This document shows, piece after piece, positions 44,674-45,766 of a stretch of 64,000 nt of DNA (the stretch's first letter is position 1; each line of letters starts with the position of its first letter). Under the pieces are notes generated by a model. That model was not told the origin of the DNA, did not search any database, and saw nothing but the letters and a program-made list of their open reading frames with translations. The stretch comes from an uncultured archaeon. Lineage in GTDB: Archaea; Asgardarchaeota; Lokiarchaeia; Sigyniarchaeales; SOKP01. The stretch spans positions 552,242 to 616,241 of the forward strand of contig CAZALK010000001.1 in NCBI GenBank assembly GCA_964486045.1. Reading direction: 5' to 3'. Position numbers and translations under genes: made by a program.

Positions 44674-44787
44674 TTAAGGTACTCCCTCACTCCCATAAAT
44701 AGACAATCCGAAAGTTGCAAACTTCGGAAAAGCTGGGAGGGCAGTCGATAAAGCTAAAGTTATGCTAATCTTATTTCTTACCTTCGT
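44674..44787 (-). CDS. small peptide ORF copy 1 (37 aa, ACG start)
   Basis: (M)KVRNKISITLALSTALPAFPKFATFGLSIYGSEGVP*; GGAG RBS 10 nt upstream; poly-T terminator; homologous to copy 2. Confidence 0.6.
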   Translation of the reverse strand, partial: TKVRNKISITLALSTALPAFPKFATFGLSIYGSEGVP

Positions 44788-44860
44788 ATAAATCCAACTC
44801 CATATGATCGTACATCAATTTTTTACACTTTAAATATATAAATATAACTATAATTACAGG

Positions 44861-44888
44861 AAAAATTCTTGGAGTTATTAAGGGTTAA
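44861..44888 (-). promoter_or_regulatory. conserved promoter/operator of peptide ORF copy 1
   Basis: AAAAATTCTTGGAGTTATTAAGGGTTAA; 27/28 identical to 45861-45888; minus strand has TATA-like TTAATA. Confidence 0.65.
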
Positions 44889-44965
44889 GTAAATTAAAGT
44901 ATATTTTCAAAAATGCACTAAAAACTAAACAATAATCTCTTATTTGTAATAATAATCCTGTATCC

Positions 44966-45030
44966 TTAGATCGGTCTAATGAGAAGTTTTAATAGCTCTT
45001 TTTCAATATCAAACGGTTTATTATTTTTCA
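44966..45030 (-). pseudogene. 3' remnant of PD-(D/E)xK nuclease gene (copy 1)
   Basis: LKNNKPFDIEKELLKLLIRPI* matches LKNNKPFDIEKELIRLFTT* at 45968. Confidence 0.8.
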
Positions 45031-45275
45031 ATTTCAACAACCATTAAATTGTTTTGATTATATTTTTTAACCCCGATACTGAAAACATCTGTAATGGGTT
45101 CTGTTTGGGGTGAAATCTCTTTAACTAAAAGGAATTTAATGTCAGGAATATTTGGATCTAGTTTTAAATCTGATTTTATCTCTTTGAATAGATTCTAGGT
45201 AATAGAATCTAAATTAACGTGAATTTTTTCTCTGGAACTATCTGTGAGAATTTGAAAAGGTGTAATTTCAAGCAT
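45031..45275 (-). pseudogene. 5' remnant of a second giant-protein gene
   Basis: MLEITPFQIL...IT*NLFKEIKSDLKLDP...DVFSIGV / QNNLMVVEI aligns with residues 1-82 of the 1219-aa protein; one stop, one frameshift. Confidence 0.85.
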
Positions 45276-45688
45276 TTTTTTTTTACCTTAGTATTAAGAA
45301 ATATTTGTGTACGAGTAGTCTTTATAAATCTTGTGACTAATTCCCTATTAGACGAATAGAAAGCCTGAACTACAATTTATGATATGCTTTCTTGACAAAA
45401 TTGTATGAATTCTTTATGATTTTTCATTTGACTTCCAACCTACCAAAATATGATTCTTGGAGAATCTAGGAAATACCCAATCAGTTAACTTTTGTTTCTA
45501 GTTTAGTTTTGAAAGAAAAATTATCAATCTTCTCATGTAAATGGTTAAGAATTTTCATTAACATTCATGAGTCATCCTTACATTCCTCAATCAAAATAGA
45601 AGAAGATCAGATACTCAGAATTTGGGTTGCTTATAATAAGTAAAATAAAAAATAGAAATAAATCTTTAGCTCTTGGTAAATGTAAGAA

Positions 45689-45766
45689 TTATTTAATTGA
45701 AGGTACTCCTTCTCCGCCATGAATAGCGAAAGCTAAAGGTTTAATATTGTTCTTTGTTAATCCCAT
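45689..45766 (-). CDS. small peptide ORF copy 2 (25 aa)
   Basis: MGLTKNNIKPLAFAIHGGEGVPSIK*; GGAG RBS 10 nt upstream; lacks 15 in-frame codons relative to copy 1. Confidence 0.55.
   Translation of the reverse strand: MGLTKNNIKPLAFAIHGGEGVPSIK

Follow-up and report, generated by a model that had tools for sequence, protein, structure and literature searches.

The window, by which is meant the whole 64,000-nucleotide stretch of Lokiarchaeial DNA analysed here, holds on its minus strand a gene for a protein of 1219 residues, called the giant below, and two very small open reading frames upstream of it. The features are as follows, in window positions.

40197–40592, minus strand: 131-codon ORF with a CxxC motif, overlapping the stop of the giant gene.
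40589–44248, minus strand: giant protein gene, 1219 aa; putative peptide receptor and transcription regulator, predicted cytoplasmic.
40679–43612, minus strand: giant residues 213–1190, predicted tandem winged-helix and Lrp/AsnC-type ferredoxin-like modules with a helical insert.
43619–44248, minus strand: giant residues 1–210, predicted gluzincin fold (M1 aminopeptidase/thermolysin-like).
44428–44441, minus strand: candidate operator motif TTCCAAGAA, about 190 nt 5' of the giant start and present in seven related loci.
44624–44759, minus strand: predicted transcript-closing RNA stem of copy 1, with 5' arm 44746–44759 in L-A-L codons, 3' arm 44641–44653 and U-tract 44624–44635.
44674–44787, minus strand: peptide gene copy 1, leader form, 37 aa (37 codons from ACG), core IYGSEGVP.
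44798–44801, minus strand: Shine-Dalgarno GGAG of copy 1, exactly 10 nt 5' of the start.
44833–44843, minus strand: TATA box of copy 1, 55 nt 5' of the start.
44861–44888, minus strand: 28-bp block 1, upstream of the TATA box, containing the TCCAAGAA motif.
44981–45040, minus strand: remnant of a nuclease 3' end, marking the junction of two 1-kb units.
45021–45275, minus strand: pseudogene fragment of a second giant, first 84 codons, with an internal TAG.
45642–45888, minus strand: expression signals of copy 2, whole span: 28-bp block 45861–45888, TATA box 45813–45823, GGAG 45777–45780 (exactly 10 nt before the start), stem arms 45729–45742 and 45660–45674, U-tract 45642–45659.
45689–45766, minus strand: peptide gene copy 2, shortened-leader form, 25 aa (25 codons from ATG), core IHGGEGVP followed by SIK.
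45968–46634, minus strand: broken Cas4-like PD-(D/E)XK nuclease gene with stops and frameshifts, upstream of unit 2.

The earlier note had described two homologous tiny ORFs here, each with GGAG 10 nt before its start, and both are found as described, together with the poly-T (U-tract) that follows each copy, the in-frame indel between them (a 45-nt gap) and the synonymous nature of the differences in their tails. The two 28-bp blocks are indeed almost the same, matching at 27 of 28 positions, but the promoter role given to them does not stand: the TATA box is separate and lies downstream, and the block is poorly kept in the orthologous locus L119. Block 1 is possibly an operator rather than a core promoter. 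Similarly, a micro-ORF had been placed before each giant, which is true of copy 1, preceding the whole giant, while copy 2 precedes only the 84-codon pseudogene fragment. The tail GxEGVP is present in both copies but, since a six-frame search of the entire genome yields G.EGVP just twice, each time here, it is specific to the window locus and was rejected as a family motif; the common feature is a Gly-rich core of around eight residues.

Both 1-kb units have the order nuclease 3' end, block, micro-ORF, giant start. The fragment of the second giant is identical to the window giant at 41 of 85 positions and to the L117 and L119 giants at 50–53 of 85. A recent duplication of the units in place was considered and discarded because unit 2 is nearer to L117 (77.5% identity) than to unit 1 (65%).

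It had been cautioned that either copy may be decaying. For copy 1 the caution was apt: among 24 long forms it has the sole ACG start and the lowest leader hydrophobicity, with two prolines in the leader. Its product has a basic N-region, a hydrophobic region and a predicted cut after G-L-S, with a maximum 13-residue hydropathy of 1.63 against 1.76–2.98 in the other leader forms. Relative to its intact orthologue L119, which has a TTG start and a giant 71% identical to that of the window, copy 1 shows the ACG start and the changes L>S, S>P and L>P; dN/dS between them is 0.24, most of the divergence being purifying. Judged by these changes, copy 1 is probably a recent pseudogene, or decaying. 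Copy 2, by contrast with what had been feared, has a counterpart of the same shortened form in L117/L118, where it is the sole peptide gene ahead of an intact giant 73% identical to that of the window; this orthologue of 23 aa shares the identical deletion and the identical 1-nt stop shift. In the window, copy 2 reads through to ...GEGVPSIK because of the 1-nt insertion at the stop, and it is probably intact and functional. Two related units thus appear to have collapsed here, unit 1 retaining its receptor while losing its peptide and unit 2 retaining its peptide, its receptor being lost. The intact giant may therefore have copy 2 as its working ligand.

Peptide genes decay elsewhere too: at L163 a leader-form gene about 620 nt 5' of the giant has a frameshift in its core. 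The broken Cas4-like nuclease is best regarded as locus context; more than 15 loci have distant relatives near giants, and in the L002/L005/L025/L041 clade these relatives form directly divergent pairs with the giant. The 131-codon ORF yielded no family match; by eye it resembles a gene of 129–133 aa 3' of the giant in six related loci, and it is kept behind the giant in the co-directional clade only. Around 95 nt are repeated at 40054–40149 and 46686–46775 (78–82% in two blocks), corresponding to the 3' end of a CxxCxxCC gene which recurs just past the giant and its small partner gene. It looks as if the cassette went in by duplication of flanking DNA.

Two copies in one tandem repeat are insufficient on their own as proof of coding, and it is the homologues that supply it. 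Both ORFs are genuine members of a large, unannotated family, found far above chance expectation. Homologues without such ORFs, which the earlier note had named as grounds for doubt, are not the rule: a micro-ORF is found within 1.1 kb upstream in about 97 of 147 non-redundant giant loci (homologous loci come from Promethearchaeota MAGs) and is mostly divergent from the giant (about 74 of 88 scored loci, and 52 of 57 scored short loci). The 147 loci, classed partly by hand, comprise 29 with leader forms, 65 leaderless, two repeat, one shortened leader, four unclear and 46 with none, at least two of the last in fact containing a member. The commoner class, missed earlier, is thus the leaderless one, of 8–14 codons.

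Enrichment was measured against 2-mer block shuffles. A strict tail motif was found at 40 of 94 giant loci, compared with 0.6 in shuffled sequence, and in 14 of 1528 control genes of this genome, where 8 of the 16 distinct matches lie at giants or a giant remnant. A looser finder picked up 72 of 90 giant loci, compared with 9 shuffled. Both were set after viewing the data, so that the single out-of-sample figure is that for 57 giants from held-out genera, where a fixed finder, applied unchanged, recovered 27 against 5.5 shuffled. The host genome itself contains four full-length giant loci, one of them frameshifted, along with giant remnants, and nine micro-ORFs are distributed over all four loci and a remnant on contig C15, seven of them divergent. 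On the divergent strand, the tails at the other three full-length loci and the C15 remnant read GEGGP, GNGGGP, GEGTP, GDGVGP, GGTISP, GEGQP and GSGGGP.

Leader forms are under purifying selection. Pooled dN/dS is 0.38 (eight disjoint pairs, Fisher p 3e-9), far from the value of about 1 that the earlier note had said would count against the genes. Third codon positions vary most, four of the five other frames are closed in 15–16 of 16 sequences, and the start codon is TTG, ATG or GTG in 23 of 24; among 37-aa forms Lys2, Gly35 and Pro37 are invariant. A TATA box lies 45–80 nt upstream in 22 of 24 leader forms and in 21 of 31 short ORFs with a ribosome site; where that site is strong the distance is about 57–79 nt. 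Short ORFs lacking such a site have the box 24–36 nt before the ATG in 15 of 30 cases, mostly at 28–29 nt, a spacing typical of leaderless archaeal mRNA. Overall, the short ORFs have a ribosome-site energy below -5 in 49% of cases compared with 7% of control ATG ORFs, and a 3' hairpin, followed by a U-tract, in 71% compared with 19% of control ORFs. As many as three peptide-gene copies occur per locus, each with its own promoter and terminator.

The leader genes share a different structure, a stem pairing the L-A-L codons with a 3' arm ahead of the U-tract. In 24 of them the mean perfect duplex is 8.5 bp, against 5.9 bp after shuffling, and in a second clade both arms have changed, cognate duplexes being twice as stable as crossed ones. 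A search by k-mer enrichment for an operator common to the family returned the ribosome site and TATA region only. Many short-form promoters have a T-rich stretch plus CG (TTTTTTCG) just 5' of the TATA box and no purine-rich BRE; the TTTTTTCG region may be a binding site or a sign of activator dependence.

The predicted products take two main forms, with a core of about eight residues either behind a Sec-like leader (34–45 aa in total) or directly after the initiator Met (8–14 codons, the commonest length being Met plus eight). Leaders were recognised by composition and by small residues at -1 and -3: a basic N-region, a hydrophobic region (hydropathy 2.1–3.0) and the small residues are present in leader forms and all are absent in short ones. 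In either case a core of around eight residues remains, after cutting at the small-x-small site or after removal of Met. Examples are LHGGEGVP, VNAGEGGP and WKGDGGGP in leader forms and PHGGEVCP, FHGDGVGP and PYSGEIGG in short forms, while LHGGEGVP, PHGGEVCP and FHGDGVGP represent the core shared by leader and leaderless genes. The intergenic regions at L174 and L175 encode 41-aa precursors with three tandem Cys-containing core repeats (PHGGDGCP-like). Cores are rich in Gly, Pro and Glu, acidic and typical of their clade. Since the core is kept with, without and with a shortened leader, we infer from these sequences that it is the active part of the product. Similarity among cores follows that among receptors weakly (rho 0.17–0.23) and in no domain-specific way (partial 0.11 for the peptidase domain versus 0.09).

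The giants constitute a small family of constant length, about 1200 aa. The idea that they are restricted to one genus was abandoned after a class-wide search, which finds them across 13 genera of the host's family, in 108 of its 134 genomes and usually in one or two copies; outside that family a single marginal match was seen among 26 genomes. Neither the giant nor the peptides could be assigned to a family with Pfam or PADLOC (NCBIfam was run on neighbours only), and no 19-residue window of the giant exceeds a hydropathy of 1.72, as a membrane segment would. The AlphaFold model (pLDDT 86.8, pTM 0.87) suggests two parts. Residues 15–210 resemble M1 aminopeptidases and thermolysin (best match 8sw0, Z 9.0, rmsd 4.5, 173 aligned), and nearly all of the roughly 30 top structural rows are zincins. 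The gluzincin assignment combines these VIA-align rows, with their middling Z of up to 9, with Atlas leads and the position of the motif; Foldseek with the N-domain gave no clear match. The zinc ligands are replaced, HExxH...NE reading RExYx...NQ (R96-E97, variable 100, N118-Q119), and HExxH is absent in all 84 of 84 peptide-linked giants. Cleft residues are conserved in this dead peptidase domain, and residues 1–210 would then be a zinc-less gluzincin domain and a plausible peptide binder.

The remainder resembles Lrp-like proteins. Residues 213–777 match NirDL (4czc, Z 12.7, rmsd 5.0, 297 aligned), and the AsnC-family structures 2p5v and 2cg4 match residues 207–376. Secondary structure repeats in the C-terminal half, where residues beyond 780 are weakly tested. 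Because this part is matched best by an enzyme, the fold is no proof of DNA binding. No TPR was matched by Pfam at E 0.1 in four giants, the helical insert at 437–625 having been searched within the whole chain only. Co-folding of giant residues 1–790 with copy 1, the decaying copy, scored 0.53 against 0.00 for the best control, with no interface; the three runs gave 0.63, 0.01 and 0.53, one of them thus having failed. With criteria of partner pLDDT of at least 31 and at least 40% shared contacts, the mark is reached by 58 of 80 solved and 2 of 110 mismatched pairs, scores of 0.60 or below accounting for 7 of the 80 and both mismatches. The models hint weakly at peptide binding by the giant.

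Some giants depart from the usual arrangement. A paralogue in the host genome (L187, G000:C1:661015-664652) is split by a frameshift near residue 430 and adjoins the genome's only MFS permease of the subfamily described below, as well as two leaderless peptide genes; split giants are also seen in several other genomes. At L002, L005, L025 and L185, 12-codon ORFs ending in Asn lie about 210 nt before the giant, divergent from it and with neither ribosome site nor hairpin. One of these is broken, and the clade has H-E in place of N-Q at 118–119 of the dead peptidase.

The commonest neighbour of the giant, likewise missed earlier, is an MFS_1 permease of one lineage-restricted subfamily, mostly single-copy. 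It is found near 47 of 65 leaderless and 2 of 2 repeat loci and near none of the 29 leader loci; among loci with full flanks the figures are 34 of 42 leaderless and 0 of 15 leader. This correlation is drawn from few independent clades, with kin not independent and classes partly hand-assigned, the leader forms occupying at least three parts of the tree. A survey covering the genus and 24 genomes from outside the family found the permease in 44 of the 53 congeneric genomes and in 0 of the 24; it also adjoins giants of other genera. It is present at 14 of the roughly 46 loci (out of 147) with no detected peptide, and it flags giant fragments even where the N-terminal query had missed them.

Two enzymes recur beside the giants, often downstream of the peptide gene: a B12-radical SAM protein, near 12 giants, and a ThiF-like protein related to MccB/PaaA (E 4e-19), near 10 of 147. 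These are too few for either to be required, and both may be regulated targets. At L156, L177, L178 and L190 the B12-radical SAM subfamily runs in the same direction as the peptide genes and is convergent to the permease, and in genome G002, where the giant was not found, it persists alongside the permease. The ThiF-like adenylyltransferases of L166, L167, L024 and L067 are of 325–383 aa and have an N-terminal extension.

Comparison with known systems is instructive. The leaderless communication peptides of Streptococcus pyogenes and relatives, exemplified by RopB/SIP, are encoded by genes for 8-aa signals divergent from their regulator (PMC10518010). The Asgard loci similarly have a leaderless gene of 8–9 codons that carries a ribosome site of its own, diverges from the gene for a cytoplasmic regulator and is followed in some loci by transporter or biosynthetic genes. 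In contrast to the aliphatic and aromatic peptide and RRNPP TPR receptor of RopB/SIP, the Asgard cores are acidic and rich in Gly and Pro, the partner is an unrelated putative receptor of 1200 aa in an archaeal host, and the core can be found behind a leader as well. The RRNPP and arbitrium systems, namely Rap/Phr, PlcR/PapR, NprR/NprX, AimR/AimP and Rgg/SHP (PMC10075063), share with the leader forms a small propeptide, putatively of Sec type in the Asgard case, with a C-terminal core and an adjoining gene for a cytoplasmic (here putative) receptor, and likewise have short-leader and repeated-core variants and paralogues with different cores. The leader forms (34–45 aa) fit the RRNPP propeptide range of 10–100 aa, whereas the leaderless forms (8–14 aa) fall partly below it. 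The RRNPP receptors differ in having 250–500 rather than about 1200 residues and a TPR, with no match to the giant in sequence or fold, and the systems rely on PptAB/Opp ABC systems rather than an MFS permease and belong to Firmicutes rather than Asgard archaea. The RRNPP-like logic with an unrelated receptor fold that the earlier note had envisaged therefore fares well as regards the gene pairing, the lack of a TPR and a candidate peptide-binding dead peptidase, signalling itself remaining putative.

The domains of the giant also depart from their relatives. As in Lrp/AsnC proteins and the siroheme decarboxylases NirDL/AhbAB, a winged helix precedes a ferredoxin-like module in a predicted pseudo-dimer (Z 12.7 over 213–777), but there are some four modules per chain, a helical insert of 190 residues and the N-terminal pseudo-peptidase, with 7–9% identity and no Pfam match. 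For sequence-specific DNA binding by the giant, TTCCAAGAA is a candidate site. Residues 15–210 have the predicted fold of the gluzincins (Z 8–9), with the Glu of HExxH and the N-E helix in place, and differ from them in that the first His is Arg, the second is variable and the third ligand, Glu, is Gln.

We think it rather probable that these genes form a peptide-signal/receptor system resembling RRNPP and leaderless-peptide systems in its working and unrelated to them in origin. Peptide, giant and transporter would constitute a three-part signalling system of one Lokiarchaeia-type family, with the core as the active, diffusible molecule. Leader forms would be exported by Sec and then cut by signal peptidase; leaderless forms would lose Met and cross the membrane via the MFS permease, in export, re-import or both. 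In the cytoplasm the core would bind the dead peptidase cleft, switching DNA binding of the Lrp-like modules, which would regulate neighbouring genes along with those for the peptide and the giant itself. Variation of the core among paralogues (nine peptide genes and four giant loci in the host genome) would provide separate channels. The fuller proposition, which we hold tentatively and judge to fall a little short of an even chance, is that this is true archaeal peptide quorum sensing, independent of RRNPP, in the lineage closest to eukaryotes: a dead aminopeptidase sensor on a single-chain Lrp-like regulator, one eight-residue code sent out by two routes, via a Sec leader or through a dedicated MFS permease, and several channels per genome.

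No published description of the peptide/giant/MFS system, or of archaeal peptide signalling like it, was found in a literature search that left most subscription papers outside. The parts look unrelated to any known signalling system, the logic paralleling RRNPP and the leaderless peptides of Firmicutes. According to a 2026 review, quorum-sensing-type responses are known in archaea while the signals are not (PMC13419125). The family offers specific, cheaply synthesised candidate signals along with a candidate receptor and transporter, so that the question of an archaeal signal becomes testable in vitro with no need to culture the host. If the signalling reading is right, a pseudo-peptidase sensor on an Lrp scaffold would be added to the receptor classes, the family would include some of the shortest predicted archaeal genes, and nature would provide a case in which delivery of one signal with and without a leader can be compared.

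It is unlikely, in our view, that the peptides instead mature into a modified natural product of the RiPP or microcin C type, the giant serving as maturase and the permease as exporter of the product. The dead peptidase would then be a substrate clamp and the Lrp-like folds catalysts as in NirDL/Ahb, and NirDL is indeed the top fold match. The microcin C-type clusters mccA/mccB/mccC (PMC4010828) offer a further parallel, a gene of 7–14 codons with an MFS permease recalling mccA/mccC and, in some Asgard loci, an MccB/PaaA-like ThiF (10 giants, E 4e-19) or a B12-radical SAM protein (12 giants) nearby. Against this, one or other enzyme accompanies no more than a dozen or so of the 97 peptide loci, ThiF being absent from the window locus, and the host genome, with its nine peptide genes, has only distant homologues (24–32%) of both. 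MccB needs a terminal Asn, found in 3 of 57 short cores, and the constant partner is the giant. Moreover, a Sec-like leader would take the substrate away from a cytoplasmic maturase, and the divergent transcription of the giant recalls that of a regulator. Were maturation to prove correct after all, this would still be an undescribed peptide-modification system.

About equally improbable is a short-lived peptide acting only as an intracellular ligand, which would hold the giant off or on and so make it a reporter of translation or proteolysis, rather than of cell density, as a guard, toxin-antitoxin component or stress sensor. An export signal is absent in 65 of 97 members, and the tandem copies, frequent decay and shuffling of context recall conflict loci, as does the broken Cas4-like nuclease flanking the window locus. 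Yet the hydrophobic leaders conserved in several clades and the dedicated permease indicate membrane crossing, PADLOC has no match for the giant or the permease and the model contains no toxic domain. The giant's presence in 108 of 134 family genomes is also unlike the patchy distribution of defence genes.

Much less credible is that the product is RNA, or that the long forms are membrane peptides akin to type I toxins, silenced by pairing between the 5' and 3' ends of the RNA, as the conserved long-range stem with its two-sided change between clades, and the predicted pairing of the start region with the U-tract in copy 1, might suggest. Here dN/dS of 0.38 and conservation of frame speak for a translated product, persistence of the core without the hydrophobic part would be an impossible loss for a membrane toxin, the short forms use a different, local hairpin and no antisense partner was seen in an unsystematic look. 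Least probable of all are cis-acting leader peptides, working by attenuation or arrest on the next gene, since despite the Gly/Pro-stop endings, the 5' stem arm within the ORF and the co-direction of both window copies with the giant, the arrangement is divergent at about 74 of 88 scored loci, many micro-ORFs face a convergent gene and each of up to three copies has its own promoter and terminator.
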